Source: Pseudomonadota bacterium
GTDB lineage: Bacteria > Pseudomonadota > Alphaproteobacteria > Sphingomonadales > Sphingomonadaceae
DNA length: 64,000 nt
NCBI GenBank assembly: GCA_018240865.1
Contig: JAFEEY010000042.1
Coordinates: forward strand, 14,545-78,544
Reading direction: 5' to 3'
Shown here: one piece after another, positions 5,502 to 42,003 of the stretch
Layout: every line of letters begins with the position of its first letter
How positions within the stretch are numbered: position 1 is the stretch's first letter
Position numbers and translations under genes: made by a program
Notes under the pieces: model-generated
Seen by the model: only the letters and a program-made list of their open reading frames with translations
What the model was told of the DNA's origin: nothing
The model's database searches: none

Positions 5502-5508
5502 GGCTGTT

Positions 5509-16704: not shown

Positions 16705-16848
16705 GACTACCCCTGATTGCAGAGACCTTGAATCAGCTTTTTGCGATATTCTACCGTGCAGCAGGCGCCGTCGCGGAAGTCGCCGGTATTGGCTTGGTGA
16801 TAGCTGCCACAAAGCACGGGACCATGTGGGCGAACGGTATCAGGAGGG

Positions 16849-17271: not shown

Positions 17272-17318
17272 CATCCACTTTGGTGCAAAGCGCCGCAAGC
17301 TCTCGTGCACAACCTTAC

Positions 17319-17777: not shown

Positions 17778-17986
17778 GGCGAAGTCTCCGGCGCCGGTGC
17801 CAGATAATAGGCCGTGATGGCCGCCCCGATGATCATTCCCTCGACGGTGACCGACTTACCGATCAGGTGTCCGGCGATCACGTCCCCAACGAGCCGCCAG
17901 CGCATCCCGTCTCCCTCGATCAGCATCAGCCCACGTGGCGTCATGTCCACCACGCCGGTTAACCGGACAGGGCTGCTGGCCGTCAT
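17771..17986 (-). CDS. Small hypothetical protein (71 aa)
   Basis: ATG 17986 forms an ATGA overlap with the upstream stop at 17983. The ORF-track N-terminal extension was discarded. Confidence 0.35.
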   Translation of the reverse strand: MTASSPVRLTGVVDMTPRGLMLIEGDGMRWRLVGDVIAGHLIGKSVTVEGMIIGAAITAYYLAPAPETSPC

Positions 17987-18486: not shown

Positions 18487-18806
18487 TACGCAGCCCCTTC
18501 GACGCTGGATTGATAGTAGACGCCTTGGTCGCGGTGCATCGCGATCTTCAGAAAGGCGGGGCACTCGACAAGCACCGCCAACCACGCCGCGCACTCGGCC
18601 CTTCCGAGCGCCGACGAGTGACTGGCCAGTTCCACCCAGACGAGGAGGGCGAGGCCGGCGATAGTCCCGATGCGGACGTCCCGCCGAAGGCCGGCAGGAA
18701 GCTTTAGAATGCTCGGTAGGCGCACCCATGCCGGGCTGGCGAGATCACCCCTGAGGTACAGCGGCGATGCGGCGTAGATCGCCAGTATGATCTGGGTCTC
18801 AAGCAT
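18486..18806 (-). CDS. Small membrane protein (106 aa)
   Basis: Two hydrophobic segments. ATG 18806 overlaps the DUF2726-like stop by 8 nt. Confidence 0.4.
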   Translation of the reverse strand: MLETQIILAIYAASPLYLRGDLASPAWVRLPSILKLPAGLRRDVRIGTIAGLALLVWVELASHSSALGRAECAAWLAVLVECPAFLKIAMHRDQGVYYQSSVEGAA

Positions 18807-22685: not shown

Positions 22686-24989
22686 CTAGATCCCCATGTC
22701 CATGCCGTCAGGCTCGCGGCCGGCGGAGAAATCCTGGCGTAGCTCGACGATCGTCTGATCCTCGACCCGCGGCGCGCTGTGATGGCTGCGACCGTCCTTT
22801 CGATCATCACGTTCTCGGGCCTGCGCTGCCTCCTGCTCTGCTGCCGCGCGCGCAGTCTGTGCGATGTCGGCCGCATGTTGACGGGGTGCCTGTCCGTCGC
22901 GGTCGGCGTTGTTTTCGTGAACCGCCTTGCTGGTCGATTCCTTCTCCGCATCGACCTCGGCAGACAGGATGCGCGCGGCCATTTCCTTCGCCACGTTGAC
23001 CGGCTCTACCACCTCCTGGATCACCTGGCCGGCACCATCACGCCCACCGGCTTCACCACCCCCTTCTCCGTCGAACACTTCCTCTCCGCGCTTCGATCGC
23101 ACCGGCTTCATGTCGGGGCGGGGCAGGAAGCCGTCCGCGACCTGGGGATAGTCCTTCCAGACGAGCTTGATCCGAGCGGCCGGGAAGCCGTCGGGGAACT
23201 TCACGAAGCCATGCATCGAGGGCAGGTTCGTGATGTCGTCGGCGATCACGAGCGGTTCGACCTGCTTGCGCGGAGTCAGCGTCGAGGCGTCGCGCGTGTT
23301 GTTGTAGCCGTAGCTGTAGGCCTCATCCATCTGGCGGACTTCGCGGTTGCCGATATAGCGGGCGCACTGCTCGGCGGTGTCGAGATCGGCGGTCGCGAGG
23401 ATGAGCTTGGAGCGGGCAAGCGAGGCGAGATTGCGGGCGCCCTGCTCGCCATAGACCTCGACCAGCTTTTCGAAGCTGTGGATGCCGAGGATCATTGCGC
23501 CGCCGAAGGCGCGGGCCGTCTGAAGGCCATTCTCGATCGCAGGCAGGCGGTGCAGCGCGCCGACCTCATCGAACATGAACCAGGTCCGCAAGCTGCGCGT
23601 GCGCGGCAGCGTCATGAGGCTGGTGATGGCGATGTTCATCCAGAGCGTCAGCAGCGGCCGGTTCATCTCCAGATCGTCGTAGTCGGAGGTGACGAACAGG
23701 ATCGATCCGGGCGCGCGCTCGGTGGTCATCCAGTGCCGGATCGAGAACGGCTCTCCTTCGTCGGGCAGGAAACGCAGGACCTGCGCATTGGTGTTGAAGA
23801 CGGCGCGGATCGATTCCGCCATGCGGGCCGCTTCCGGGGCGGTCAGCGGGTCGGCGATGGTGTTCGCGAGGAAGCGATGCACCCGCTTCAAATCGGCGGT
23901 CATCAGGTTCTCGGCGAGCGCCAGGTTGGTGGTCTGGCCGCGCTCCTGAAGCCGGACGCACATCTCGATGAACAGGGTGCGGGCCGCGAGCGCCCAGAAG
24001 GGCTCGGACGAGCCGCCATCGGAGGGAATGAGCGCCGCGGCGGCCGACGTGAAATGGCTGTAGGTCGAGCAGTCGTTGAAGATCGACCAGGCCGGGCAGC
24101 GCTGGTCCATCGGGTTCAGGATCGTGTCGCGCATGGGATCGTAGAAGGCTTCGACATAGGCGCCGGTGAGATCGAAGATCACGGCGCTGTCCTGGCGCTG
24201 GCGCATCTGGCTGACCAGACTCCTGAGCTCGGTGGTCTTGCCCGCGCCGGTGGTGCCGATCAGCATGGAATGGGACTGCTCGAGGCGGTGCGGATAGGGG
24301 ATGCCGGCGAGCGTATAGGGATGGTGGATGCCGCCCGCCTTCCGTGTCGCGAACGGCAATTTGAGCACGGCGGCGGACGAGCGGCCGGGGAAGAACTCGC
24401 GCGCGTCCTCCGCGAATTTTTCCGCATTGTGCTGCGCGATTTCGGAGACCAGCACGGCGCGATCGACCAGCATGGCGCCGCGCTCATGGCGTTCCTGAAG
24501 GATCGAACGCCCACGCCTGCGCGAGATGTCGACGAACCAGATGGTGAGTGGCGCGACCACGAAAACCGAGACGAGGATCGAGCCGATCAGCGCCCGGATG
24601 GTGGTCTCCCAGGCCTGCTGCACGGCCGGGATATAGGGCACCACGGGCATGACCGTTTTGTAGATCTCGCCATTGGGCAGGGTGACGTTGACGCGCTTGT
24701 TGGGATTGAGGTCGACCCAGTTCCAGAGCGCCGAATAGATCTTCATGCAGACGAGCTGGAATCCGTGCTCGTCGAGGCGGATCGAGAGGATGACGAACCA
24801 GGCCGCGAGGAAGGCGAAGAACCAGACCATGATGGGCAGCCGCGCGCCCGAAAACCACATCAGCATCTCGTGGGTGAGAAGCTGGCTTCCGCGCGTGAAA
24901 TTGCCGGCGTTGCGATGGACTTTGCCCCGCGCCGAATGATGGGTCAGGGGTATGGCGCGGCCATCGGTGCGGATGTCCTTACGCGCCAT
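22686..24989 (-). CDS. Type IV coupling protein (TrwB/TraD/VirD4 family)
   Basis: N-terminal TM segments, Walker A (GTTGAGKTT), position upstream of the relaxase. ATG 24989 was chosen; the ORF-track extension to 25388 overlaps the RHH gene. Confidence 0.9.
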   Translation of the reverse strand: MARKDIRTDGRAIPLTHHSARGKVHRNAGNFTRGSQLLTHEMLMWFSGARLPIMVWFFAFLAAWFVILSIRLDEHGFQLVCMKIYSALWNWVDLNPNKRVNVTLPNGEIYKTVMPVVPYIPAVQQAWETTIRALIGSILVSVFVVAPLTIWFVDISRRRGRSILQERHERGAMLVDRAVLVSEIAQHNAEKFAEDAREFFPGRSSAAVLKLPFATRKAGGIHHPYTLAGIPYPHRLEQSHSMLIGTTGAGKTTELRSLVSQMRQRQDSAVIFDLTGAYVEAFYDPMRDTILNPMDQRCPAWSIFNDCSTYSHFTSAAAALIPSDGGSSEPFWALAARTLFIEMCVRLQERGQTTNLALAENLMTADLKRVHRFLANTIADPLTAPEAARMAESIRAVFNTNAQVLRFLPDEGEPFSIRHWMTTERAPGSILFVTSDYDDLEMNRPLLTLWMNIAITSLMTLPRTRSLRTWFMFDEVGALHRLPAIENGLQTARAFGGAMILGIHSFEKLVEVYGEQGARNLASLARSKLILATADLDTAEQCARYIGNREVRQMDEAYSYGYNNTRDASTLTPRKQVEPLVIADDITNLPSMHGFVKFPDGFPAARIKLVWKDYPQVADGFLPRPDMKPVRSKRGEEVFDGEGGGEAGGRDGAGQVIQEVVEPVNVAKEMAARILSAEVDAEKESTSKAVHENNADRDGQAPRQHAADIAQTARAAAEQEAAQARERDDRKDGRSHHSAPRVEDQTIVELRQDFSAGREPDGMDMGI

Positions 24990-25269
24990 GGTATTGCTCC
25001 AGGCGCTTGTCCGCATTGGCGATGATCCGCTCGCGGAATTCGGGATATTGCTCGCTGATGATGACGTCGAGCGCGAGCTGCATGAACTCGCTGATCCGCG
25101 CCAATCGGCGGTGGCTGGACGTGATGACGCTCGCCGTGCCGAGATAGGCATCGACTGCCGCCCGGATGATCTCGGAGGGCTTGCATTCCTGGTCCGTCGC
25201 GAGGGCCAGAATGCGATCATACTGCTGGCGGTCGAGCCGGACCGTGCAGTGCCGTGTCGTCGAGGACAA
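24979..25269 (-). CDS. Ribbon-helix-helix relaxosome accessory protein (TrwA/MobC-like position)
   Basis: RHCTVRLDRQQYDRILALA...PSEIIRAAVDAYL is an RHH pattern. The TTG start lies 5 nt after an AGGAGG SD. First gene of the RHH-T4CP-relaxase operon. Confidence 0.6.
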   Translation of the reverse strand: MSSTTRHCTVRLDRQQYDRILALATDQECKPSEIIRAAVDAYLGTASVITSSHRRLARISEFMQLALDVIISEQYPEFRERIIANADKRLEQYHGA

Positions 25270-29563: not shown

Positions 29564-29732
29564 ATCACCCCCGCAAGGTGATCGTAACCCGGCAGGGCGG
29601 AGACGCGGCAAGGCCGTGGCTCCGGGAGCCGCAGGCGAGTAGAGCGCCGGTCCCGGCCTGAGCCTGTCGAAGGGCCGGGATGCGCCAAATGATCGAGCAC
29701 CGACGCCGCAGGCAATGTTGAAGGAATGAAGA

Positions 29733-30089
29733 GTGAAGGCCCAGATTCAGGCGAACTATGAGGAGCGTCTATCGCGATATGCTGCACTGTTGCATGGCAA
29801 TGAGCCACCGGGGCTGGTGGCGAAACTCGCCGTCTATCAGCAGCTCCTGCGGCAACGTGATATTCATGGCGACCGCCTGTGGCAGATCGAGCCGATCCTC
29901 TATCCGCTGGCGGAGCAGGACGTGATCGCGCTGGTGAACAGCGTGATCAAGGTCGTCACCGATCAGGAGTGGAAGCTCCGGGATGGGGCGAGCTTCCATG
30001 TCGGCGAGTTCTACGCGATCGGCGTCGAGAACATGGTCCACAACCTCGAGACGGGGCGACGCGCGAACTTCCCGGGCCAGTTGAGCTGA
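29733..30089 (+). CDS. Hypothetical protein (118 aa, GTG start)
   Basis: Coding-like ORF on the opposite strand to the array, convergent with ssb. Confidence 0.4.
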   Translation: MKAQIQANYEERLSRYAALLHGNEPPGLVAKLAVYQQLLRQRDIHGDRLWQIEPILYPLAEQDVIALVNSVIKVVTDQEWKLRDGASFHVGEFYAIGVENMVHNLETGRRANFPGQLS

Positions 30090-30121
30090 AGGGCGGCGCC
30101 CGCAGGCGCCGCTCTACCGGG

Positions 30122-30442
30122 TCAGAAGAAGTCGATCTTGTCGGCGATGATCTCGCAGCCGTACCGGGTGACTCCGTCGCGATCCTCCCAACTCGAATAG
30201 TGCAGCCGGCCGGTGATGGCGACGACATCGCCCTTCTTGCGCGAGGCGCCGGCCTTGCCGAGGCCGTTGAAGCAGGTGACCTTGTGGAACTCTGTCTCTT
30301 TGGCGGTGTAGCCGGTGGCGTCGTCGACATAGGTCTTGCCGTCCCTGAGCTTCACGCGATCGGTCGCGACAATGAGGGTGGTGACGGCGCCGCGGGTCTC
30401 GGGGTCCTTGGCGACGCGGCCGGCGAGATTGACGTTGTTCAT
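30122..30442 (-). CDS. ssb: Single-stranded DNA-binding protein (short plasmid type)
   Basis: MNNVNLAGRVAKDPE OB-fold start and C-terminal DKIDFF tip. GAGGAG SD. Confidence 0.85.
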   Translation of the reverse strand: MNNVNLAGRVAKDPETRGAVTTLIVATDRVKLRDGKTYVDDATGYTAKETEFHKVTCFNGLGKAGASRKKGDVVAITGRLHYSSWEDRDGVTRYGCEIIADKIDFF

Positions 30443-30841
30443 GGTAGTGCTCCTCGTTGGGTCCAGCGGCCTTCCCGCCGGTGACACCGAAGAGCGGCGT
30501 GCGGAGAGGGTCCGCACCGTAGCGTCAGCGGAGGGGAACCCCTGGAGGGAGTTGGCGCGGGCAGCCGCGAAGCGGCAACACGGGCGACCGGATGGGGTTG
30601 CGGGACGTCTTCGTCTCGCCGCAGGTGTCAGGAACAGGCGAAGGAAGGCTGCTGGCCGCGGCGGGGCTCTACCCGATGGACGATCGCGCGGCGCGCTGCT
30701 CTTGACCCCGGCGCCGGCGGCGGAGCGCCCTCAGGAGTTCGTGCTCAGCAATCGGTGACGGGCAAGCCCGTTCGGCGAGGCCCGCTAGACGCAGCGATCG
30801 GGATTGAGGGCAGAGCCTCGTATTGCTCGGCCTCGGCGGCC

Positions 30842-31033
30842 TCAGGCGCGAAATGGCAGACGGAGTTTCGCGCGGCGGGACCTTTCGCGCGCGGTATCAT
30901 GCTCATCAGCCCATCGGTCGGCGGCGATCTCTTCGTCCGTAGGTCGCGCGCCCGCGAGATCGGCCCGCTGCTTGTCGCTCAAGGTCTCGGCCGTGCTCAC
31001 CGCCCGATTGCCGTGCCGCTGGTTCGTTCCCAT
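30842..31033 (-). CDS. Possible small protein (63 aa)
   Basis: ATG after a GGAGTGAG SD-like sequence. No motif. Confidence 0.3.
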   Translation of the reverse strand: MGTNQRHGNRAVSTAETLSDKQRADLAGARPTDEEIAADRWADEHDTARERSRRAKLRLPFRA

Positions 31034-31098
31034 GTGTTCTCACTCCGAAGTCGCGATGATCCGCGCCGCGTGGCAAATGCGGGCGCGGCCGATACTGG

Positions 31099-31536
31099 TC
31101 AGGAGGTACGCTTGACCTGCGTGACCTTGCCGGCGTCGTAGGCGGCGAGCCAGCGGGTGCGGATGGTTTCGTAGAAGGCGGTTGGAAGCTGACCGTATGC
31201 AACCTCGCCCAATGGATCGCCGGGCACCGTCCGAAGATCGGGCCCGGGCCATTGAAAATAGTTGAGCTCCGTGAGGACGACCCACGAGCGATCATCATCG
31301 AGCCCGAGACGAACCTTCGTCGCGTGCGGAATTTCAACGGCAAGGCTCGTGTCGGACGGCGGCGTATGGGTCACTGGCAGGATGGTGACCATCTTGGCGC
31401 CTGCCTTATTTGTCGTCGCGAGCAGCACGGCGCAGGGACGGTCTTTGCTGCCTTCTTCGTGACCTGCCTTTGCTTCATGGCTCCAGAGATACGAGTAGCG
31501 AATTACGAGGCCGGGAACTGGATCGGGAATTTGCAC
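31099..31536 (-). CDS. PemK/MazF-like toxin candidate
   Basis: GLVIRYSY...DRPCAVLL...VTILPVT pattern. GTG start 3 nt after the antitoxin stop. Confidence 0.5.
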   Translation of the reverse strand: MQIPDPVPGLVIRYSYLWSHEAKAGHEEGSKDRPCAVLLATTNKAGAKMVTILPVTHTPPSDTSLAVEIPHATKVRLGLDDDRSWVVLTELNYFQWPGPDLRTVPGDPLGEVAYGQLPTAFYETIRTRWLAAYDAGKVTQVKRTS

Positions 31537-31539
31537 TCG

Positions 31540-31800
31540 TCAGGACTCGACCTCGTGATCGAAGGCAGCGGCTTCTGCCGGCGCTCGCGCCGCTCGAACC
31601 CCCTCCACGATTTCCTCCGGCACGTCAGTCAACGTGAAGACCTCGCGATCGCGCCGCTTGAGCCGCTGATATTCGGCGGCCGACATCAACACGAGGCTAT
31701 CGTGGCCATGATGCGTGATGGTAAGGGGCGCAACCAGCGCCTGGCGGCTGATGCGGCCGAAGGCCTTTGACGCCTCAACGGAACTGACAGTCTGGGGCAT
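31540..31800 (-). CDS. Phd/YefM-family antitoxin
   Basis: N-terminus (VSSVEASKAFGRISRQA...PLTITHHGHDSLVLMSAAEYQRL). AGGAGA SD. Confidence 0.65.
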   Translation of the reverse strand: MPQTVSSVEASKAFGRISRQALVAPLTITHHGHDSLVLMSAAEYQRLKRRDREVFTLTDVPEEIVEGVRAARAPAEAAAFDHEVES

Positions 31801-31990
31801 GGTGATTCTCCTGTCCGGAAAGTACGGAGTTTCCGGATAAATTTCAAGTCCTCTCTGTCGCGCGCGCGAGGACGATAGCTGAGGACACGGTCACAGGGAA
31901 ACGAAGGCAGGGCCCGCTTGCCGTGAGGCAAACGAGCCCTGCGGGGTTGCCGCGCGCCGGAGGGACGCGCGCGGCAGGGAGAGAGGATCG

Positions 31991-32503
31991 TCAGTCGGCC
32001 ATCTCGGGCGTGCGGCGACGGCGGCCATTGCCCTGCGCGGGCTCGCCGCCGAACGCGCCCTCGGCCGAGGATTCACCCAGGCCATCCGTACCGGCGAGGC
32101 CGTTCGGCTTGGCCGGCTCGTCCGCACCGGGCAGCGGCGGCAGGCTGTCGTCGGCCGGGGCGGTGTCGGTCGGCGCATCGCGGCGGCGGTTGGGACGCGA
32201 CCAGACGATGTTGTACGAGCCGTCGTCCTGACGGAACGCCGAGATGTAGAGCGGCTTGTCGAGGCTGGGATCCTCGATCTTGCCGTTGAGGAACATTTCG
32301 CCGGTCGCATTGGACGCCAGCTCGAACAGTGAGCCGACCTGGACCCACTGGCGTGCCGCCGAGAGCGCGAGGATCTCGAACTTGGGCGCACGCGGATTGG
32401 CGGAATGGACGGTGCGAAGGGCGATGACGATCGCGACCGTGAGCGTCGAGATTTTGCCGGTGTAGGTGCCGCTGGCGTTCTGGGTGATGGTGCCGATGTT
32501 CAT
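31991..32503 (-). CDS. DUF736-family protein
   Basis: MNIGTITQNASGTYTGKISTL... is a typical DUF736 start. AGGAGA SD. Common in ICE leading regions. Confidence 0.7.
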   Translation of the reverse strand: MNIGTITQNASGTYTGKISTLTVAIVIALRTVHSANPRAPKFEILALSAARQWVQVGSLFELASNATGEMFLNGKIEDPSLDKPLYISAFRQDDGSYNIVWSRPNRRRDAPTDTAPADDSLPPLPGADEPAKPNGLAGTDGLGESSAEGAFGGEPAQGNGRRRRTPEMAD

Positions 32504-32666
32504 GGGAAGTCTCCTGAGAAAGTGCGCTCGAACCCCTTGTCCGAACACCTTCTCTCACCCGCTCCTCTCCTCGGCCGTTCGGCCGAGTAAGGCGCGCCAG
32601 CGCCGCTCCGACGCGCCACTTCGGCGCCGTCGGGTACTTCAGGGCCTCGCAATCACGCGATGCGTG

Positions 32667-32987
32667 TCAAGTCTGGGGAGCGCTTGCCGATGGCCGCCAC
32701 AGGGCAATGACATCCTGCATCTCTTCGGCGAAACCGAGACCGTCGATATAGACGGCGCCGCGGTCGTTCTGGCCGAGAAAGCCGATCACGCTCGTGATGT
32801 CGTTTGCCACGTCGATGTCGAGGCCGAACATGTCGGCGATCTCGAAATGACCAAGCTCCGGGCCATTCCACCAGGCCATCAGAAAGTTCGCGACGCGGCG
32901 CGCCTGCCCGGTGTCGCCCATGGCGAGCGGGATAAGCCGTGTCAGCGCCGCACGGGCGGAATCATAATCTGTCGGTACGGACGTCAT
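32667..32987 (-). CDS. Hypothetical protein (106 aa)
   Basis: ATG 32987 after a GGAGAA SD. Confidence 0.5.
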   Translation of the reverse strand: MTSVPTDYDSARAALTRLIPLAMGDTGQARRVANFLMAWWNGPELGHFEIADMFGLDIDVANDITSVIGFLGQNDRGAVYIDGLGFAEEMQDVIALWRPSASAPQT

Positions 32988-33060
32988 CGGTTTTCTCCGC
33001 GCGCAGAGGGTATCGAGGCGACACCCGGGCGCAAGCGTTTCTGCCTCGAACGGCCCGATC

Positions 33061-33390
33061 CTAATGAATCGAGCCGAACAGCCGCCGCTTGACCTCGGCC
33101 TGGTGCCGGCCATCCTTCTCGCCGATCGTCGCGGTCATGTCGGCGAGGAGCTGTTCGGCAAGCCTCGGCGGGATTTCCGCATAGGGCGTGATAACGGCGA
33201 TCGCGGCCTCGGGCGTGGGAAGCTCGCCCGGTTCCGTGCCCCGCCAGATCAGCGCTTCCCCTTCATCGGGCTCATCATCGGTGCGAAAGCACACCTGAGC
33301 ATAACAGGTCTGGAGCGGTCGGTCCCAGCCTACCGCCGCGCAGATGACGTCGGGATGGCCGGCCTTGGGCGGGAGAATGTGCCTGCTCAT
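33061..33390 (-). CDS. Hypothetical protein (109 aa)
   Basis: Coding-like ORF in the co-oriented array. ATGA-type overlap with the upstream small ORF. Confidence 0.5.
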   Translation of the reverse strand: MSRHILPPKAGHPDVICAAVGWDRPLQTCYAQVCFRTDDEPDEGEALIWRGTEPGELPTPEAAIAVITPYAEIPPRLAEQLLADMTATIGEKDGRHQAEVKRRLFGSIH

Positions 33391-33593
33391 GCGTGTGTCC
33401 TCCGCATTCTGTGCGCGACGTGCCGCGCGGCGCCTTCGGCGCTGTTGATGGCCTGACCTGCTGCCGATGCCGCGCGGCGCGCGCCCGCCCTGCGCAGCAG
33501 GTTACGGGCTTCGCGCAGGCGTTCAACGGCAATCGCAATGGCTTGTCCGTCCTCGGACGTCGCGGGTGTGATGCGGCGCAAGATTACCTCCAT
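33387..33593 (-). CDS. Small hypothetical protein (68 aa)
   Basis: Overlaps the start of the next gene by 4 nt. Confidence 0.35.
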   Translation of the reverse strand: MEVILRRITPATSEDGQAIAIAVERLREARNLLRRAGARRAASAAGQAINSAEGAARHVAHRMRRTHA

Positions 33594-33626
33594 TTTGGTT
33601 GGAAATTGGCGAGGCGACTGATCGGC

Positions 33627-33977
33627 TCAATCGTCGCAGGGGAGCATGATCGTCAGGACACGGACGGTCACCGCGGCGTCGGCAGGATCTTCCGAGCCCC
33701 ATTCGAGCGAGGGATCGTAATAATCGATGCGAAAGCAGACGATGTGACCCTCGAGCTCGAACTGCCCGTAGTTGCGTTCCGGGCCGTCATCAGGCTTGAA
33801 TTCGTAGCGCCGGACGGCCGCGAGTACCGCGGCCTGGGCGACGGCTTCGCTGACGATGCGGTCGCCGCCTGCCAATGTGGCGAGACAGGTCGCCGTCATC
33901 ACGATCCGCGCGTTTCGATCGAGGCCGAGCCGCACGCGGTCATTGAGCTCGGCGATCCGGGATATGGTGCTGGTCAT
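33627..33977 (-). CDS. DUF3768-like protein
   Basis: The start (TSTISRIAELNDRVR...) and the CFRIDYYD segment resemble DUF3768. ATGA overlap with the upstream gene. Confidence 0.5.
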   Translation of the reverse strand: MTSTISRIAELNDRVRLGLDRNARIVMTATCLATLAGGDRIVSEAVAQAAVLAAVRRYEFKPDDGPERNYGQFELEGHIVCFRIDYYDPSLEWGSEDPADAAVTVRVLTIMLPCDD

Positions 33978-34924
33978 GCTGCCTCCATCAAGCCGGCGTT
34001 GAAACTCGCGATCCATTCTTCCATCGTCGGCCGCTCGGCGATCGGCACGATGCTGGCGGCGTCCTGGAAACGGATGAGATCGGTCGGCGCATCGCGACGG
34101 ATCGCGTCGATCTCGGCCTCGGGGAGCAGCCGCTCGGCGCGGATGAAATCGGTGATCCTGCCGGGCCGGGTCCTGGTCGATCGGCGCCACAATCCCTCGA
34201 CGGTGCGCAGGCGCGGTTCGGCGCGGGCCTCAATCAGGACAATCAAGCGAAGGCACCACGCCGGCAGGGCGCGTACTTCATCGGGCCGGATGGCGCCGCA
34301 GAAGAAGCAGCTCGACTTGGGCGGCACCGGGAGACCGGCGGCCTCGATCCGGGCGATGCAGCGATCGCGCGTCCAGTTCCATTCGCGCAGCGGATAGCGG
34401 CACTGGAACAGCGGATCGTCCAGCCCGGCAGCATGGGCATGACGCCGGGAATCGGAGGGCGACGTGTCGTAGCCGATCAGCCGCTCGACCTTCTGCCCAT
34501 TCGCCCATGCGGCGCGAGCCGGTGCCCATTGCTTCAGGAAAGCGTCTTGCGGCGCCACCTTCCATTTGAGGCTGCAACTATGCCGTCCCAGGCTGATGCT
34601 CGGCAAAGTCGCATTGGTCAGGACATTGGCGAGGATCGAATAATAGGGCGGCCAGTGCTTGAAGCGTCTGGGCACGTAGCGGACGATCTCATAGGGAATC
34701 CCGCGCGCGTGCATCCACGCGGCGATCATCCGCTGATATTCGTAGGTCTCGGGCTTCTCCGCGCCCGGATCGGCGCTCAGCACCAGGTCTGGCGCCTCGC
34801 CGCGCGCCTCGAGTTCGATCAGCAGCGCCGTGGAATCGACACCGATCCCATAGGCCAGGACCACGGGCGGCGGGGCGGCGACCAGAATGGTATCGACCGC
34901 TCGTCTGTTGCTTGGGATGTGCAT
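33974..34924 (-). CDS. PAPS-reductase-like PP-loop ATP pyrophosphatase family protein
   Basis: PP-loop-like VLAYGIGVDST near the N-terminus and C-terminal Cys pairs (CFFCG). ATG 34924. Confidence 0.7.
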   Translation of the reverse strand: MHIPSNRRAVDTILVAAPPPVVLAYGIGVDSTALLIELEARGEAPDLVLSADPGAEKPETYEYQRMIAAWMHARGIPYEIVRYVPRRFKHWPPYYSILANVLTNATLPSISLGRHSCSLKWKVAPQDAFLKQWAPARAAWANGQKVERLIGYDTSPSDSRRHAHAAGLDDPLFQCRYPLREWNWTRDRCIARIEAAGLPVPPKSSCFFCGAIRPDEVRALPAWCLRLIVLIEARAEPRLRTVEGLWRRSTRTRPGRITDFIRAERLLPEAEIDAIRRDAPTDLIRFQDAASIVPIAERPTMEEWIASFNAGLMEAA

Positions 34925-34960
34925 GGAGTTCTCGGCCTCGATCGCGGCCCATCGCCGCAA

Positions 34961-34980
34961 CCCTCAAGATCCCCCTCCCC
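34961..34980 (-). repeat. CCCCCTCCCC box
   Basis: Exact core at 34971-34980, between the Mom-like stop and the PP-loop gene start. Confidence 0.5.
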
Positions 34981-35817
34981 TCATTCTCGGCCGGCTGTGC
35001 GGTTCTCGGCCTCGATGCGAAGATCGAACTGAAAGGTGGGGTGCGCCAACGGCAGGGCCTTTGGATAGGGAAGTCGCGGCAGTGCGCGGCCGTGCCGGCG
35101 GGCTTCGCGGGTGAGCTCGAAGCAATAGGCGTAGAGACCCGGCTGCTGATGGCGCACGAGATGGCGTTCGCGTTGCAGCCGCCAAAGCCATGTCGCAGGC
35201 ATCTCCCCGAACTCCGGCCTGGGCAGGCCAAGCGAAACGAGCTGATCGATGGCGCCGGCATGGCCTCGCTCGCCAAGGCGGATCTTCGAGAGCGTGCGCC
35301 CCGCGATCGTTGTGTCGCCGGCGCGCAGGACGGTTCGCGGCCTCGTAATGGCGCGGTGCGCCGCCGAGAGCGCGCAATAGACGCGGCCTATATGTCCGGC
35401 GCTTGGGTCGCTGTACGAAACCACGGCCTCGATTCCGGGCTTCTCGCGGCGCAGATGGCGAAAGGCCCGCGCGACGAAGAAGCTCTCCCCGTTCTGGGGC
35501 ACGGCGTCTGTCAGGATCAGGCGGGCGAGCACGCAGCCGCGTAGCGGATCGGCAAAGCCGGTGTGCCGCGTGATTACGGCTCCGGTGGCCGGAACGGCGA
35601 AGACGGCGACGCCTTCCAGGACTGCCCCGGCGCCATAGAGCCCGACCGCGAGCTGCGCCGCAGGATAGGTCGGCAGATAATGATGGCGGGCAATGAAAGC
35701 GCGCGCGGCATCGTGTCCGATGATCTCGACGGAATAGGATTTGGGATCGATGACCGTGAGATCGCGGGCCCAGAGCGCCCGGCGCTCGCGCCAGCGCTGG
35801 CTGCGGCTCGTTTCCAT
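34981..35817 (-). CDS. GNAT-fold protein resembling the phage Mu Mom-like family
   Basis: ARAFIARHHY...VGLY...GVAVF..P...NGESFFVARAFRHL...VVSYSDPSAGHIGRVY matches the pattern I associate with Mom-like acyltransferase-fold proteins. Not verified by HMM. Confidence 0.5.
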   Translation of the reverse strand: METSRSQRWRERRALWARDLTVIDPKSYSVEIIGHDAARAFIARHHYLPTYPAAQLAVGLYGAGAVLEGVAVFAVPATGAVITRHTGFADPLRGCVLARLILTDAVPQNGESFFVARAFRHLRREKPGIEAVVSYSDPSAGHIGRVYCALSAAHRAITRPRTVLRAGDTTIAGRTLSKIRLGERGHAGAIDQLVSLGLPRPEFGEMPATWLWRLQRERHLVRHQQPGLYAYCFELTREARRHGRALPRLPYPKALPLAHPTFQFDLRIEAENRTAGRE

Positions 35818-35835
35818 GTTTTGGATCCTCGAATG

Positions 35836-37119
35836 TTAGCGGGCGGCAAATCTCGTCGCCCCGCCGAACAGGCGGAGCGCGCGTGCCATCTCGTCGCGCA
35901 ACCGGGCCTTGCTGCCGACGATGAGCGTCGGCGCGAGGGGTTTCCCGCCGGGGTCGATGAAGCCGTGCGCGAGGGTGCCGTCCTGTTCGATCGAGACGAG
36001 ATGCCCCTTGCCGGGCGCCGGCCCCTGATAGCGCGCCGTCAGCTCGCCTAGCTTCGCAGTCAGGCCCTTGGTCGCCTTGGACCAACGGATGTGGCCAGCG
36101 CCGACATTGCTCCCGGCCTCGCGGCCTCGATCCATCCAGAGTTTCGCGTGCGCCTTGACCTGCAGCGGCGTGTTGCGCGTGCGTTCGCGATTCCGACAGG
36201 TTGGCAATGCGGCCGAATGGGTATCGAGAACCCGCAGATATTCGCCGTGCAGCGCGACAAGGATATCCTCGATGTCGATGCCGGCGAGGAGCGCGCGAAG
36301 CCGGTCCTCCTGCTCGGGACTGGCAATGAGCTCGTCGGCCCGCTCCGCCGTCAGTTCCTCGGCCTCGGGCTGCGCGGTCACACCGGATATGAAGCCCTTG
36401 GTGGCGGTGAGAATGATGGCGTGACCGCCGCAGCGGCCGCCTGTCTTACGATAGCGCTCCAAAATATCGCCTCGGCCGAGCGCCGCCGCCGGATGATCGC
36501 CCAGGATGATAACCCGCCGCGACCATGGTGTCGGTCGGGGCCGGTCGCTGGGTTTCGGCCAGTCCGAGGGTAGCGATCGCACCGCACCCCGCGACTGCAT
36601 CGAGATGGGCGCTCGTTCGGCAGCGCGATTGGCCCGGCGCGCCGCGTCGAAGAGATCATCAACGTCGCCGCCGCCGTCGGCGAACCCGCAGTCATAGGCC
36701 GGGCGTTCTGCGGCCTTGGACGGCGAACAATGGTTCCAACCTACATGGGCCGCGTACCAGCCATCGGCATAGCGGATCGCGAGATTCCAGTCATAACCAT
36801 AACGATCGCGTCCACGCAGGATCGCCGCATCGCGCTCATCACCGCGTCCTGAGACGGCGCGCTCCTCGGTGAAGCTGAAATTGCGCGCCTGGCGCTCGGC
36901 CTCGCTATGCGCGGCAATCGCGTCGTTGACGGGCTTCATCGCCTGGACGCGCGCGCGGGTGCGCGCCATGCGATCTTCAGGTGAAGCCGTCGGCGCCAGG
37001 TCCGGAAAGTCGCGCCAGGCTTTCGCGATCGCTTCGGCATGTTCCGGTGCGCGGCCCCGGGCCAGCCAGGTGGCAGTCGAACAGGGGTCGAACTGCGGGA
37101 TTTTTTCGACATGGATCAT
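35836..37119 (-). CDS. Hypothetical protein (427 aa)
   Basis: Long coding-like ORF in the array. ATG verified. Confidence 0.55.
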   Translation of the reverse strand: MIHVEKIPQFDPCSTATWLARGRAPEHAEAIAKAWRDFPDLAPTASPEDRMARTRARVQAMKPVNDAIAAHSEAERQARNFSFTEERAVSGRGDERDAAILRGRDRYGYDWNLAIRYADGWYAAHVGWNHCSPSKAAERPAYDCGFADGGGDVDDLFDAARRANRAAERAPISMQSRGAVRSLPSDWPKPSDRPRPTPWSRRVIILGDHPAAALGRGDILERYRKTGGRCGGHAIILTATKGFISGVTAQPEAEELTAERADELIASPEQEDRLRALLAGIDIEDILVALHGEYLRVLDTHSAALPTCRNRERTRNTPLQVKAHAKLWMDRGREAGSNVGAGHIRWSKATKGLTAKLGELTARYQGPAPGKGHLVSIEQDGTLAHGFIDPGGKPLAPTLIVGSKARLRDEMARALRLFGGATRFAAR

Positions 37120-37139
37120 GTGGTCGGCCTCGGTCGAGA

Positions 37140-37784
37140 TCAGGCGAAGAGGCGCATCGGCTGTTCGACCGGCGGCGTGAGACGAAGGTCGCGCCGCAGA
37201 CGGTCGGCGAAACGGTCGGGCGCCATGAGATCATTGACCGATGCCCAGTGATTGCGCGCGCCGCAGTGATCATCGCGGCCACGAACCCGGCGATAGAGGA
37301 CTTCCCGGCCCGGGCCCGAACAGCCAAGCGAGAGCTGCACCCATGCTTCCTCGCCATGGAGCGTGATTTCGCCGGAAACCGCAGGGCCGCCCTTGCTGGA
37401 GCGGATGTCATAGGTTCCGTCGCATAGGCCCAGCGCGTCGGCGAGGCGCCGCATTGCGGTGCGGCCCTCCGAATGGAAGAGCCGCTTGGCGGCCTCGTCA
37501 TGGCTCACGCCCCGATAGGCGAGGTTGCGCAGGACCGGCGTTCGGCGGATTTCGGCGATCTGGTCCATGCAGGTGCGCCGAAGCTCGAGATTGGACGGAC
37601 GATCTTCGCACACTGCGCTGAGGTGGCGAACGAGCAGGATCACGGCGGGATCGGTTTCGGCGTCTTTGCCGGCGTTGCGGCAATCCTTGATCGCGGCTCC
37701 GATCGCGTGGAGGGTGGTGCCGACGGTGATCAGCGCGCTGGGGTCGAGCGCCTGCTGGTGGCGCATGGCGACGTCGTAAGTCAT
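37140..37784 (-). CDS. Hypothetical protein (214 aa)
   Basis: GGAGGG SD 8 nt upstream of the ATG. Confidence 0.55.
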   Translation of the reverse strand: MTYDVAMRHQQALDPSALITVGTTLHAIGAAIKDCRNAGKDAETDPAVILLVRHLSAVCEDRPSNLELRRTCMDQIAEIRRTPVLRNLAYRGVSHDEAAKRLFHSEGRTAMRRLADALGLCDGTYDIRSSKGGPAVSGEITLHGEEAWVQLSLGCSGPGREVLYRRVRGRDDHCGARNHWASVNDLMAPDRFADRLRRDLRLTPPVEQPMRLFA

Positions 37785-37825
37785 GGGATGGCCCTCCGGT
37801 CTTGAGCGAAAATCCGCTCAAACGG

Positions 37826-37849
37826 CCCTCTCCCCCTCCCCTTTCTCCC
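37826..37849 (-). repeat. CCCCCTCCCC box; the minus strand reads GGGAGAAAGGGGAGGGGGAGAGGG
   Basis: Exact core at 37832-37841. Four G-runs of 3 or more. Confidence 0.5.
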
Positions 37850-37877
37850 GTGGCCGGCCTCGGGCTCGACCGAAGAT

Positions 37878-38636
37878 TCAAGCAGCGATCGGTAGCGGGA
37901 TCGGCACGGCCTGCCCGGTGGCGATATTGATGAACGCGCCCGCGTGGCCGATCGATCCGCGGCCAACGAGATCGAAGAGAAGGGCCAGCGCGTGGCTCGC
38001 CACCACCCGGTTCACGAAAAGCGACTGGCGCTCGAGGGCTTCGGCCATCGAGCACGACGGCGCGTCGTCGTCAGGCAGGCTCTCGTTCGCGACCTCGGGG
38101 AAATATTCGAGGACTGTCGGGAGGATCTGGTGCCCGGCCTCGGGCTCAGCGTTCGGGCAACCGATGATATATTGCCCGTCGCCAGCGCGGTTGCCGAGAT
38201 CCAGCCAATAGGCCGGCGCATTCCTGGCCGAGGCGATGGCCGCACCGACGCTCCGGCGCGCCGATGCGGTATCGACACAAGTGATGACGATGTCGGTGCC
38301 GTCGAGCTTCGCGGCCTCGGGTGCCCGGCCATGCACCGCCGTCCAGGCCAGACCGTGGGCGAGATTGATCCGCTCGGTTAACGTCCGGGCCTTCGAGTTG
38401 CCGATGTCGCACCTGAAGAAGGGCTGCCGGCCAAGATTGGCCTCGCTGACGATATCGTCGTCGACGACGGTTACATCGAGCGAACGCGACGAAATCGCCC
38501 GCAGCGCCGTATCCAGCGAGGCGAGCCCCATCAGCATCTGCGCGCCGTTGCCGCCGCATCCCACAAGCACGATTTTGATCGCGCGGTTGCCGAGCGCCGC
38601 AGGCAGATAGTGGCGAAGGGGCGTCTCAGAGGTCAT
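37878..38636 (-). CDS. PRTRC-system ThiF-family E1-like protein
   Basis: Rossmann motif (VLVGCGGNGAQ). ATGA overlap with the JAB gene. Cassette context. Confidence 0.85.
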   Translation of the reverse strand: MTSETPLRHYLPAALGNRAIKIVLVGCGGNGAQMLMGLASLDTALRAISSRSLDVTVVDDDIVSEANLGRQPFFRCDIGNSKARTLTERINLAHGLAWTAVHGRAPEAAKLDGTDIVITCVDTASARRSVGAAIASARNAPAYWLDLGNRAGDGQYIIGCPNAEPEAGHQILPTVLEYFPEVANESLPDDDAPSCSMAEALERQSLFVNRVVASHALALLFDLVGRGSIGHAGAFINIATGQAVPIPLPIAA

Positions 38637-39286
38637 GATCGTCTCCTGAAAAAAGGGCTTCGCGGCAGCGGGAGGAACATCCCTCCGGCGCACAGTCGCG
38701 AGGCAAATGCGGGGCCGTCCGTATGACCCAGACGTCCGACAACCAGGGCGATCTTGGTCGCGTGCGCGTCGTCCGCGTCGTCGGTTGCGCTGAAGAAGGC
38801 CGCGCCGTGCCCATGGCTGTGAATGTCGCAGATGAGGTGATGGTGCGGCGGCAGCGCAGGCGGACGATAAGTGAGGTGTGACGGCGTCGCGCGGTCGATC
38901 TGGGGGAAGTCGACCCAGAATCGCCGATTAGCCTCATCCCAGAGGATGAAGGCGGCGGCCTCGTTGGGCAGCGCGGCGCGAAAGTGCTCGAGGACTTGCC
39001 GCAGCAGCTCCGCCGGTATCAAGCCGCAACGCAGGTCCGCGCGGCGAACTCCAATGCTCCCGTAGGGCAGGTAGGCCGGGATCGGCGGTGTCACGGGCAG
39101 ATCCAGAGCCAGCCAGGCCCGGCGCAAGATCAGGCAGACACCATCGCGGCCGATTGCGAGGCAGCTGCCTGCTCGGGCTTCGCGAACGGCCTCGATCGCG
39201 GGTGATCGCCCATCCGGCGGCACGGGATAGCAAGGCGCCTCCGCCAGTACCGCGGCGGCGGTCGGGTCTTCGGCGAGGGCAGTCAT
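38633..39286 (-). CDS. JAB/MPN metalloisopeptidase (PRTRC protein A position)
   Basis: Complete JAMM motif HSHGHGAAFFSATD (HxHx7Sx2D). Confidence 0.8.
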   Translation of the reverse strand: MTALAEDPTAAAVLAEAPCYPVPPDGRSPAIEAVREARAGSCLAIGRDGVCLILRRAWLALDLPVTPPIPAYLPYGSIGVRRADLRCGLIPAELLRQVLEHFRAALPNEAAAFILWDEANRRFWVDFPQIDRATPSHLTYRPPALPPHHHLICDIHSHGHGAAFFSATDDADDAHATKIALVVGRLGHTDGPAFASRLCAGGMFLPLPRSPFFRRRS

Positions 39287-40113
39287 CGGCCGGACCTTCC
39301 GTAGATGAGGTCGCCGAGCGTCACTGGGTCGGCCTTGGCGGCGCCTCGCGGGGCGGTCTGGCGACGATCTCCGAGGAACGGCCTCAAGCGTTTGACCGGG
39401 AAGCGGGTCGCGCGGGTCGCTGCGAGGGTGTCCCAGAGACGCACGAGACCGCCCTTCCCCGTGATCGTCAGCTCCTGACCCGGATTCGGATGGGTCGACC
39501 AGGAGTCGAAAAGCGCGCGCTCGAACTCGGGAATGGCGGACACATCCAGCGATGTCGGCTTCGGAATGTTACCCCAGCAGAGGGAACCGTTGAGGAAGAC
39601 GTTGAGGATCGGCGAATGAAGCAAGGCGGTTTCGGCCGCGGGCCGCTCGTTCCGCTCAAGCGCAAAGACTCCAAGCCGGCGCCGTGTGGCGACAAGGACG
39701 TGTGCCGGATAGGCAACCGGGACGATCGCGCGGCCGCCAAGCGCACGCAGTCCAGCCAGTTTCGCCGAGAGGTCGAAATAGGCCGTCCTCACCTGTGCGG
39801 GCACCCACCAGACCAGCAGGTCGGGATGGGCGACAAGCACCGTTTCGGGGAGAATTTGCGGCGGGGCGACGCGGCCGAGCGCCTGCGACCAATGCCGCAG
39901 ATGCGCCCGGGTCAAAGGCGTTCCAGCGGCGATGGTCGGCGCGCCGATAGCGTCGTGCTCGATCTGATGGATGCTGGCGAATGCCTCGGCATCTTCGCCA
40001 GGGGTAAGATGCGAGCCGAGGCCGCGAGCCCCGTCGCTTCTGTAGAGCAGGATGGCGTTGGTCAGCATCATGCCGCCTGCGGTTCGCTCGAACTGCACGC
40101 AATGGTCAGTCAT
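39283..40113 (-). CDS. PRTRC protein B position, E2/UBC-like candidate
   Basis: Cassette order. Conserved-looking Cys in NGSLCWGN. ATG 40113 lies 10 nt after the upstream stop. Confidence 0.55.
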   Translation of the reverse strand: MTDHCVQFERTAGGMMLTNAILLYRSDGARGLGSHLTPGEDAEAFASIHQIEHDAIGAPTIAAGTPLTRAHLRHWSQALGRVAPPQILPETVLVAHPDLLVWWVPAQVRTAYFDLSAKLAGLRALGGRAIVPVAYPAHVLVATRRRLGVFALERNERPAAETALLHSPILNVFLNGSLCWGNIPKPTSLDVSAIPEFERALFDSWSTHPNPGQELTITGKGGLVRLWDTLAATRATRFPVKRLRPFLGDRRQTAPRGAAKADPVTLGDLIYGRSGR

Positions 40114-40123
40114 GTCGGCCTCG

Positions 40124-41212
40124 TTATTCGGGAGGATAGAGTTCGATGAGATGTTTGGCGGCCCGCAGCAGCCGCGCGCCGGCGGCGAGTGACGCATGCC
40201 AGACATCGATCGCGGTGGAGTGCGTCATTGGGCAAAGGCCCGTCACGTCCATGAAACCATATTCCATGCCGTGACGCCCGACGTCGTCGACCTCGACCGC
40301 GAACTGTTCGACGGGAACGAGTGTCAGCGGCGGAAGCGGCGAACATTCCTCGATACCGGGGACATATTCGTAGAGAACATCCATCTCGAGGCGCCAGGCG
40401 TGATGTTCGTCAGGCAAATTGGTGAGCGCCGCGTGGGCATCCCGCAATTCGCGCAGAGCCCGACGAAGGGCAGTCGGTAACTTCGACGTGGGCGCTGCCC
40501 TCGCGGCGAGCATCCATTCTGGCCGCCTGGCGTTCATTTCGGACGGCATGGTCTGGGCCGCGATCTCGCTGTCGTCAGCCCCATGGAGCGCAACGAGGGC
40601 CTCGCGCGCAGCGGCGTCCTCGGTCTCGCCGTCCCAATAGTACATCGAGATGTTGTCGAAGAGGTCATCGTAGCAGAAGATCGGGAGAGCACTTCCGAGC
40701 GTGCGCTCGAGCACCCGATACGCAGCCGCGCGCCACGGGATCGGCCGCTTGCTGTCCTCGATCCATCCGAGATCGAGCTGCCCGACACTGTCGCAGACGA
40801 TCGCGACCGCCGGCGCCCCGCAGGATTCGCCGTTGAGCACGACGACGCGCAGGTCCGCGATCGTGCAGCTCCGCAAGCTTTCGAGGACCTCGGTCTGGAA
40901 GACCCGTTCGATATGTCGGCGCGCCTCAGGGCGCGTGCGGTGCACTGTCTCCTGCTCTTTCGAGGCGACCCAACTGCCGACGAGCTTATGGTGGGCCGCC
41001 AAAGGTCGATCGAACATCACCGGAATATCAGGGGAGATATGGACGGTCCGTCCTGCCAGATCAGCCGAGCGGAGGAAGGGAGAGTCCTGTGGGTGGCGGG
41101 ATAGGATCGGCAGGACCATCCTCGCGCGTGCCCGCGTCGAGGATGATCTTCGCATGGAGGGCCTGGGCTTGTTTGCTGCAGGCAGGCCGGGAGAGTTCGG
41201 AAGTGTTGCCAT
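40124..41212 (-). CDS. PRTRC protein F position (unknown function); start 41212 or 41119
   Basis: Cassette order only. Confidence 0.5.
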   Translation of the reverse strand: MATLPNSPGLPAANKPRPSMRRSSSTRARARMVLPILSRHPQDSPFLRSADLAGRTVHISPDIPVMFDRPLAAHHKLVGSWVASKEQETVHRTRPEARRHIERVFQTEVLESLRSCTIADLRVVVLNGESCGAPAVAIVCDSVGQLDLGWIEDSKRPIPWRAAAYRVLERTLGSALPIFCYDDLFDNISMYYWDGETEDAAAREALVALHGADDSEIAAQTMPSEMNARRPEWMLAARAAPTSKLPTALRRALRELRDAHAALTNLPDEHHAWRLEMDVLYEYVPGIEECSPLPPLTLVPVEQFAVEVDDVGRHGMEYGFMDVTGLCPMTHSTAIDVWHASLAAGARLLRAAKHLIELYPPE

Positions 41213-41286
41213 GGTCGTTCTCGATCCAATGGAGCAGCGTGCAGCGCGGTGCGGCGGGGATGGCCGCCATTTGAACGCGCGCCATG

Positions 41287-41493
41287 TCAGCCCTTGGTGC
41301 CGACAGCTCGGCGATATTCGGTGACGTGGACACCGCCAGTAACCCCGGCATCGACCAGGTCGGCATTGAGGATCGCCGGGTAGAGGGTGGCGTGGTAGGC
41401 GCGCAGCCCCTGCGGGTCATTGGCAAGGTGCGGCGGCTGCGGGAGGTCGATACCGTCATAGCGGTAGACGCGGGCAAGATGGTCGATCTGCAT
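41287..41493 (-). CDS. Small ubiquitin-like candidate (PRTRC protein C position), 68 aa ending in Gly
   Basis: Size, position next to E1/E2/JAB genes, and C-terminus ...AVGTKG immediately before the stop. Confidence 0.6.
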   Translation of the reverse strand: MQIDHLARVYRYDGIDLPQPPHLANDPQGLRAYHATLYPAILNADLVDAGVTGGVHVTEYRRAVGTKG

Positions 41494-41538
41494 CGGAATG
41501 TCCTTGTTGGAATTGCAAAGGGTGTCGGTTGCTTCCGA

Positions 41539-41970
41539 TCACCAGAGGCTGGCGGGCTCCTCCGATTTTGCATCGGCCGGCAGGGCGCCCGCCGCTGGCG
41601 CGGCCGGCGTGCTCGCTGCGACTACCGGCTTGGCGGGTGCCGATGCCGCCTTTGCCTTCGCCGCCTCCGCAGACGCCGCGCGCGCGGCCTCGGCCGCGTC
41701 CCGCTGGGTCGCGATCTGATCGGCAAGCGCCATGCGTGTGGCAATCAGCCCACCGAGCGCCCCCTCGGCGCCCTTCGCAAGCTCTGCATCGATCTCGGCG
41801 GCCGTCGCTGTGATCGAGATCGGACGCAGCTCGCCGGCCTCGGCCTTGTGCGTTTTGCCTTCGGCGACGCGGGGAATGATGATGAGGGTAACGACACCGT
41901 CATCGCCGGCGACAAGATCGAAGGCGAGCGAATAGTTGCCCAGCATGGGCAGAAGATTGGTGATCAGCAT
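41539..41970 (-). CDS. PRTRC protein E position (Ala-rich C-terminal tail)
   Basis: Cassette order. AAGGAA SD. Confidence 0.5.
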   Translation of the reverse strand: MLITNLLPMLGNYSLAFDLVAGDDGVVTLIIIPRVAEGKTHKAEAGELRPISITATAAEIDAELAKGAEGALGGLIATRMALADQIATQRDAAEAARAASAEAAKAKAASAPAKPVVAASTPAAPAAGALPADAKSEEPASLW

Positions 41971-42003
41971 TGTGGGATTCCTTGATTGGAAAGTTGGGCG
42001 AGG

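Follow-up and report, generated by a model that had tools for sequence, protein, structure and literature searches.

On the minus strand of a 64,000-nucleotide (nt) stretch of sphingomonad DNA (contig JAFEEY010000042.1 of assembly GCA_018240865.1, positions 14,545 to 78,544; "the window" throughout), a gene for a Mom-family protein of the GNAT fold (278 aa; 34981-35817) is followed by genes for a PAPS-reductase-like protein with a PP-loop (AANH) fold (316 aa; 33974-34924) and a DUF3768 protein (116 aa; 33627-33977). We propose that the two enzymes provide two separate modification or anti-restriction functions within one anti-defence array rather than the steps of a single pathway, a reading to which we give a probability of about 0.55. 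An original prediction, made from the letters of the sequence, had joined the two as a candidate DNA hypermodification pair. Its sequence statements (the open reading frames (ORFs), the motif positions, a 56-nt gap and an ATGA junction) are all confirmed; the functional pair itself is not supported, because Mu Mom is self-sufficient (PMC13219725) and because the two genes are mostly found separately, in varying order and at varying distances, and either can be lost while the other stays.

In the reading that we prefer, the Mom-like protein would take an activated amino acid (glycine from the host Gly-tRNA(Gly)) and attach it to adenine N6 in the double-stranded DNA of the plasmid; the adduct would rearrange to N6-carbamoylmethyl-adenine or a close variant, and plasmid DNA modified in this way could blunt the restriction enzymes of a new host. 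We infer this mechanism from homology and from the conserved catalytic residues. The PAPS-reductase-like protein would bind ATP, adenylate a substrate and release pyrophosphate, while a three-cysteine site (C117, C206 and C209), possibly holding an iron-sulfur (Fe-S) cluster, would carry out sulfur or related chemistry on DNA or a nucleotide, so that the protein would amount to an independent modification or anti-defence activity. The DUF3768 protein may be a lineage-specific acidic partner.

To our knowledge, Mom is the only known enzyme to use a charged tRNA for DNA hypermodification, and work on it has been confined to phage Mu and a few virome homologues. Our comparisons make Mom-family genes standard backbone cargo of the conjugative megaplasmids by which catabolic and resistance traits spread through the sphingomonads, and early expression from the position that they occupy could shield entering DNA from restriction. 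They also place a mobile PAPS-reductase-like clade of more than 2,000 clusters (at 50% identity) in a DNA-modification neighbourhood with methyltransferases and Mom, and this shared neighbourhood makes the clade a reasonable target in the search for new DNA modification or anti-defence activities. Each of the two genes belongs to a known kind, and what is new, in a modest way, is the recurrent adjacency of Mom and PAPS-reductase genes; were the two enzymes to cooperate, they would constitute a new hypermodification pathway.

The Mom-like protein and its relation to Mu Mom

Judged by its sequence, the 278-aa protein is solidly placed as a genuine Mom-family GNAT. It matches the Pfam Mom family PF25680 with E=4.2e-25 (89 bits against a cut-off of 27.1) and PHROG 1384, "Mom-like DNA modification protein", over residues 20-254 with E=1.2e-26, and Mu Mom (PDB 8BV8, E=9e-4) is its sole meaningful sequence match in the PDB. 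Identity to Mu Mom is about 26%, and a profile of 27 relatives aligns with Mu Mom over the full length in hhalign (probability 96.5%, E=9.5e-10), down to a common C-terminal PYPK. The family had been proposed from a motif pattern (HHY at residue 45, GLY at 59, NGESFF at 109 and VVSYSDPSAGHIG at 132), with the proviso that the protein might instead cluster with ordinary acetyltransferases. It does not group with these; PF25680 is present in all 120 listed homologues, and close relatives are already named "Mom family adenine methylcarbamoylation protein" in several database sources.

How Mu Mom works has recently been shown: given Gly-tRNA(Gly), Mu Mom alone transfers glycine to N6 of adenine in double-stranded DNA, and the adduct rearranges on the base to N6-carbamoylmethyl-adenine, so that 6-NcmdA is formed without the need for a partner enzyme (PMC13219725). 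We have set aside the acetyl-CoA/iron radical mechanism proposed for Mom (PMC7261163), since it is superseded by this 2026 biochemistry. The self-sufficiency of Mu Mom likewise does away with the mechanistic need for a second enzyme.

With residue numbering fixed on the Mu Mom sequence of NC_000929, the residues that mutagenesis found to be needed in Mu Mom (H48, Y49, R101, S114, D139 and Y149 in truncated numbering; PMC7261163), which in full-length numbering are H58, Y59, R111, S124, D149 and Y159, align to H46, Y47, R99, S112, D137 and Y147 of the window protein. All six positions are invariant in 27 relatives, except that position 112 is S or T. The hhalign alignment continues through the helix-turn-helix (HTH)-like insertion that Mu Mom requires for its activity, and the C-terminal segment of the window protein aligned there is basic and conserved, with R174, K178, R180 and W210 invariant. 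What the window protein has in common with Mu Mom is thus the GNAT core, the basic C-terminal region, the six catalytic residues and a home on a mobile element amid DNA-modification genes. It differs in lacking a Com-like translational regulator at its locus and in being plasmid-borne, on the presumed leading side, whereas the Mu gene is a late phage gene. The protein is probably an aminoacyl-tRNA-dependent DNA adenine modifier, and self-DNA modification with an anti-restriction role would be its natural reading.

Three further residues are important in Mu Mom, namely R151, which is essential, W48, which lies at the dimer interface, and W181 (PMC13219725). None of them is kept in the window protein: R151 is replaced by a variable S139 (in SDPxAGH), W48 aligns to D36/A37, and W181 is not conserved either. 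The loop after the SDP motif is also shorter than in other plasmid Mom-like proteins, the distant ones among which have a longer, Arg-containing loop there. Because Mu R151 has been replaced, the chemistry could differ from that of Mu Mom, as the original prediction had allowed; with R151 and W48 gone, donor or target may be other than in Mu, and a helper becomes possible. Taken further, these differences could mean that the Mom-like clade has diverged from momylation altogether and uses another acyl donor (a different aminoacyl-tRNA or an acyl-CoA) or another target (a different base, RNA, aminoacyl-tRNA as in the GNAT toxins TacT/AtaT, or protein), in which case it would not be a Mu-type DNA modifier that evades restriction. 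The low identity to Mu Mom would agree with such a divergence, as would the result that no tRNA gene, including a tRNA(Gly) that might supply the Mom co-substrate, was found in the window, and the authors of the Mu work state that co-substrate and substrate are not predictable from structure alone (PMC13219725). We nevertheless think a change of donor or target unlikely: homology extends over the full length, including the basic region aligned to the HTH-like insertion, the six other catalytic residues are kept, the isoelectric point (pI) is 10.5, the gene keeps company with DNA-modification genes and with those for a single-stranded DNA-binding protein (SSB) and ParB, and no antitoxin-like partner is apparent next door.

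A profile search of genome contigs with the Mom alignment returned sphingomonad-type relatives only; diverse Mom loci were therefore drawn from plasmid records and viral contigs. The protein encoded most often beside Mom-like genes on the viral contigs (16 of 84 loci, L087-L166) has about 250-450 aa and starts with MGKTNIEWTD; we take it to be a member of the phage Gp37/Gp68 (DUF5131) family. In Microbacterium phage Phonegingi (OR475255.1), the Mom-like gene (29703-30401, labelled "acetyltransferase") adjoins genes for tRNA-Gly and a ParB-like nuclease-domain protein, and the tRNA-Gly gene next to it fits Gly-tRNA as the Mom co-substrate.

The PAPS-reductase-like protein and the DUF3768 protein

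The 316-aa protein is PAPS-reductase-like with a PP-loop fold, and the clade to which it belongs is large and resides chiefly on mobile elements; the protein is neither a CysH nor a DndC/SspD/BrxP protein. Its match to PHROG 424, "PAPS reductase", spans residues 17-286 (E=2.5e-23), and that to Pfam PAPS_reduct (PF01507) covers residues 33-81 at 11.8 bits (E=0.24), under the cut-off of 22.5. Sequence searches of the PDB with the single protein and with two family profiles gave nothing meaningful, and fold comparison alone was informative. An AlphaFold model (mean predicted local distance difference test, pLDDT, 74) has its best Foldseek matches in argininosuccinate synthetase, LarE-[4Fe-4S], TtuA and GMP synthase, and the matches listed are almost all AANH enzymes (ArgG, LarE, TtuA, GuaA and Cap9; E 2e-6 to 2e-4). 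Their template modelling (TM) scores are low, 0.32-0.38, because the N-terminal domain alone aligns.

The family comprises 2,163 clusters at 50% identity (E<=1e-3), and its longest proteins reach 2,459 aa. Ten of 60 diverse representatives match PF01507 at E<=0.001 (best 7e-13), and two of the 60 have a fused inorganic pyrophosphatase domain, which hints at pyrophosphate release. The PP-loop of the window protein is degenerate, with YGIGVDST at residue 25 as against the canonical SGGxDS; in the family consensus, YG(I/V/L/M)G(V/A)DS(T), D30 is nearly invariant and the first Ser and second Gly of SGGxDS are replaced. G26, G28, S31, E56, C117, K122, K203, S204, C206 and C209 are invariant across the family. 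Three of these, C117 (in SCSLKWK), C206 and C209, form an SC...CxxC pattern that we presume to be positioned like the Fe-S ligands of APS reductases.

That pattern, together with the weak similarity of 50 N-terminal residues to Pfam PAPS_reduct, might suggest an ordinary assimilatory PAPS/APS reductase of the CysH type, carried as metabolic cargo. With CysH the protein does share the N-terminal nucleotide-binding strand-loop and an "ADxGxExPETY"-type motif. We regard this origin as most improbable, however, since the Pfam score lies under the gathering threshold, the NCBIfam CysH model is not matched, and the C-terminal ECG(L/I)H motif with its catalytic cysteine is absent from the protein, whose last cysteine is C224. 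The surroundings contain no sulfur-assimilation genes; members of the family sit on plasmids and phages, in proteins of up to about 2,460 aa, and beside DNA methyltransferases rather than cys genes.

The original prediction had described the protein as a PP-loop enzyme of the PAPS-reductase/DndC-like class, and the two halves of that description fare differently. The AANH fold and PHROG 424 bear out the first. With DndC, SspD and BrxP the protein shares the superfamily fold, conserved cysteines compatible with an Fe-S cluster and a plausible DNA-modification context, but it differs from them in its PP-loop (YGxGxDS in place of SGGKDS), it has no PADLOC match to DndC, SspD or BrxP at E<=0.1, and the annotated genes, over about 19 kb on the upstream and 16 kb on the downstream side, include no DndA/D/E, SspB/C or BREX partners. 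The missing ECGLH motif, the lack of a PADLOC match and the lack of dnd-type partners together lead us to exclude both the CysH and the DndC-like assignments.

A further parallel, likened here by domain description, is the Vibrio phage protein p0018, in which a PAPS-reductase domain is joined to Dam and plays a part in evading Dnd (Piel et al., bioRxiv 10.1101/2021.05.05.442762). The window protein has in common with p0018 and with PHROG 424 the PAPS-reductase-like domain, mobility, an occurrence in variable or anti-defence regions and an association with methyltransferases; unlike the p0018 fusion to a Dam methylase, it is a stand-alone protein followed by DUF3768. A study of acr-aca operons has named Mom homologues and PAPS reductases alike as candidate anti-defence DNA modifiers.

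The downstream gene had been called DUF3768-like and translationally coupled, and both statements hold. Its product (pI 4.6) matches Pfam PF12599 with E=2.1e-20 (72.9 bits against a cut-off of 25), and the ATGA junction is real, the PAPS-reductase-like ORF ending in GAG GCA GCA TGA and the DUF3768 start codon lying within ATGA at base 33977. In 55 sphingomonad loci a DUF3768 gene is the next one downstream of the PAPS-reductase-like gene; it adjoins that gene in 0 of 160 viral-contig loci and in 0 of 9 other plasmids, and it is kept in loci from which the PAPS-reductase-like gene has been deleted (L012, L015 and L020). The sequence is acidic, with an invariant DYYD...GSEDPAD segment. Its structural model is confident (pLDDT 94, predicted TM score 0.86), and Foldseek comparison of this model with the PDB and BFVD found nothing at E<0.1.

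Several plasmids carry the PAPS-reductase-like gene in broken form. In at least six plasmids or genomes (L247 at 2550-7309, L011, L024, L027, L038 and L052) it is split at codons 117-120, at the Cys of SCSLKWK, which corresponds to window position ~34571/34572. The inserted element is about 8-9 kb long, encodes three tyrosine recombinases in a row and exists in copies 77-97% identical; the copy in S. amiense pSAMIE_2 also has TIR-domain proteins among its cargo. The gene is repeatedly truncated at a second point as well, residue 207 in the CxxC motif. The window gene is intact.

Do the two genes form one pathway?

In the 80 sphingomonad loci that were retrieved by way of their Mom-like gene, a PAPS-reductase-like gene is usually present within 10 kb and on the same strand. 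Two orders occur, Mom > PAPS reductase > DUF3768 as in the window, or PAPS reductase > DUF3768 > one gene > Mom, and the distance between the two enzyme genes ranges from 60 nt to 9 kb. The PAPS-reductase-like gene is intact in 40 of these loci, fragmentary in 26 (about five of them through contig ends) and absent in 14, with a Mom ORF that is almost always of full length. Conversely, many sphingomonad plasmids have a full-length PAPS-reductase-like gene and no Mom, and plasmid records as a whole include 163 with a PAPS-reductase-like gene and 84 with a Mom-like gene. Outside the sphingomonads the link is looser. The PAPS-reductase clade of the window lies within 10 kb of 5-6 of 80 diverse viral-contig Mom loci, and a Mom-like gene lies at 2 of 80 loci of that clade (97.5% are without one), none of which has DUF3768; the broad PAPS-reductase alignment was too divergent to serve as a locus query, and a narrower one was used.

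Under the alternative that the two enzymes act in one pathway, Mom would load adenine with an aminoacyl group, and the PP-loop enzyme, with DUF3768 perhaps assisting, would adenylate the adduct or the base for amidation, thiolation or the like, giving a hypermodification unlike that of Mu. The genes do run in one direction and close together (a gap of 56 nt, then ATGA), the R151 that is essential in Mu is absent from the sphingomonad Mom clade, and independent cases of adjacency are seen in Diaphorobacter, Streptomyces, Piscinibacter and several metagenomic contigs, with three PAPS-reductase clades. On plasmid pDCB3 of Diaphorobacter, a member of the window clade lies 8 nt upstream of a Mom-like gene. 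The Streptomyces plasmid (L083, 6645-9940) has a distant clade member directly upstream of the Mom-like gene and a weak PF01507 protein downstream, two canonical PF01507 proteins flank the Mom-like gene on a Piscinibacter gummiphilus plasmid (L251, 4393-8480), and in a metagenomic contig (L108) two PAPS-reductase-superfamily genes stand in tandem upstream of it.

Several of our findings count against two separate functions. With seeds from all PAPS-reductase clades found beside Mom, an ORF of the superfamily flanks 14 of 89 non-sphingomonad Mom loci, nine of them within 500 nt and on the same strand; at least three clades are represented among these neighbours; and the Streptomyces, Piscinibacter and metagenomic loci each have two such genes per Mom. 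The recurrent adjacency exceeds what would be expected of unrelated rare genes, yet it is no stronger than the association with methyltransferases. To these must be added the loss of R151 and W48 described above, which leaves room for a helper, and a leading position that is read from gene order, the search for oriT and nic having come up empty.

Against a single pathway stand the activity of Mu Mom without a partner (PMC13219725), the absence of a PAPS-reductase-superfamily gene from the flanks of 84% of diverse Mom loci and the corresponding 97.5% on the side of the clade, an order and spacing that are not conserved, and a sphingomonad Mom that stays intact where its PAPS-reductase neighbour has been deleted, or interrupted by a mobile element. 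DNA methyltransferases, moreover, are equally frequent beside both genes, as an anti-defence island would yield. In an unbiased clustering of neighbours, the PAPS-reductase clade is most often accompanied by C5 DNA methyltransferases (12 loci) and ParB-N6/N4 methylases (9 loci). C5 methyltransferases also accompany Mom-like genes at 10+8 loci, against 5 for the PAPS reductase, and the beginning of the Mom-like gene on a plasmid of Leifsonia is overlapped by a gene for a cytosine methyltransferase. Methyltransferases beside both genes are what one would expect if the two belonged, independently of each other, to a DNA-modification or anti-defence island. We therefore judge a shared pathway to be unlikely, and somewhat less likely still is its more general form, in which plasmid Moms would repeatedly have recruited PAPS-reductase-superfamily enzymes (from at least three clades, with DUF3768 added in sphingomonads) for an adenine hypermodification beyond that of Mu, such as an ATP-dependent amidated or thiolated adduct on incoming DNA.

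One further locus that would speak for cooperation is that of plasmid 2 of Variovorax sp. SRS16 (L084, 2502-8834), where a Mom-like gene faces a divergently transcribed operon for a weakly GNAT-like protein, an Asp/Glu racemase, a NadE-type NAD synthase (a PP-loop amidotransferase), a 2-oxoglutarate-Fe(II) oxygenase and a cytidylyltransferase-like protein; it may be a multi-enzyme modification cluster. Three-gene sets of Mom with two PAPS-reductase-superfamily genes recur in unrelated lineages, in L251 and L083 (where the two genes are of different clades) and in L108, and Salmonella phage FSL SP-031 (NC_021775.1) carries a Mom-like gene and a PAPS-reductase relative 18 kb apart (6088-6729 and 24665-25267).

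The plasmid, its presumed leading side and the neighbouring genes

Window positions 30000-42000 are 99.9% identical to plasmids of Rhizorhabdus dicambivorans, Sphingobium sp. CFD-2 and Novosphingobium capsulatum that are typed as conjugative, MOBF and MPF_F; from this identity we conclude that the element is a conjugative sphingomonad megaplasmid and not an integrative and conjugative element. NZ_CP023451 served as the 99.9%-identical reference plasmid (locus coordinate + 10999 = window coordinate). RefSeq labels both enzymes "hypothetical protein", and the Mom-like protein is identical to WP_030090573.1.

In F and R388, the relaxase gene enters the recipient last and leading genes are oriented toward the origin of transfer (oriT). 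The MobF relaxase and type IV coupling protein operon of the plasmid (19632-24989, minus strand), annotated by RefSeq in NZ_CP023451 and present as ORFs in the window, shares its strand with the two enzyme genes, which lie about 9-11 kb past its upstream end. Outward from this operon come small genes, SSB, a Phd/YefM-type toxin-antitoxin, DUF736, DUF7673, DUF3768, the two enzymes, two hypothetical proteins and PRTRC. Because this arrangement of relaxase and gene orientation resembles that of F and R388, the array is presumed, from gene order, to lie on the leading, first-entering side. The placement in the leading region of a conjugative element, claimed from the start, is to that extent upheld, by a co-directional array between SSB and PRTRC on the expected side of the MobF operon; oriT was not found, since at the settings used the DNA upstream of the relaxase operon yielded no inverted repeat of the oriT type, and nic was likewise not located.

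The array resembles the leading-region anti-defence islands surveyed by Samuel et al. (2024; PMC11541004) in its co-direction by the relaxase/oriT side, its SSB, its toxin-antitoxin and its DNA-modifying enzymes, and differs from them in that its leading status is deduced from the order of the genes. Mom, PAPS reductases, DUF3768 and PRTRC are not mentioned in that survey (PMC11541004).

Within the array, the TGA stop of the Mom-like gene ends at 34981 and the ATG of the PAPS-reductase-like gene lies at 34924, which by direct reading leaves a spacer of 56 nt (34925-34980); an alternative in-frame TTG start exists at 34960, and RefSeq picks the ATG (316 aa). A sequence scan of the spacer found neither a promoter-like nor a terminator-like site, and a scan of 32.5-41.5 kb found zero terminator-like sites and no excess of promoters, which is weakly compatible with an operon-like array.

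Upstream of the Mom-like gene and co-directional with it is an ORF for a hypothetical protein of 427 aa (35836-37119, minus strand), separated by 18 nt and a junction that carries a GAGGA ribosome-binding site; it is preceded by an ORF for a hypothetical protein of 214 aa (37140-37784, minus strand). Neither hypothetical protein has a Pfam, NCBIfam or PADLOC match. A PADLOC scan of five locus proteins returned zero matches, and the NCBIfam scan a blaVEB match alone, which is spurious. Several sphingomonad loci encode relatives of the 427-aa protein immediately beside the Mom-like gene, on one side or the other.

The array is directly preceded by a complete PRTRC cassette (37878-41600, minus strand), which comprises a ThiF-like E1, a JAB peptidase with DUF2016, the E2-like protein B, proteins C and E and a ParB-family protein, and which accompanies the Mom-like gene in many sphingomonad loci. 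At the other end, just past the relaxase gene (~13929-18565), lies a Tn7-like module made up of a TnsA-like protein, a protein with a Mu-transposase C-terminal domain, TniB and TniQ.

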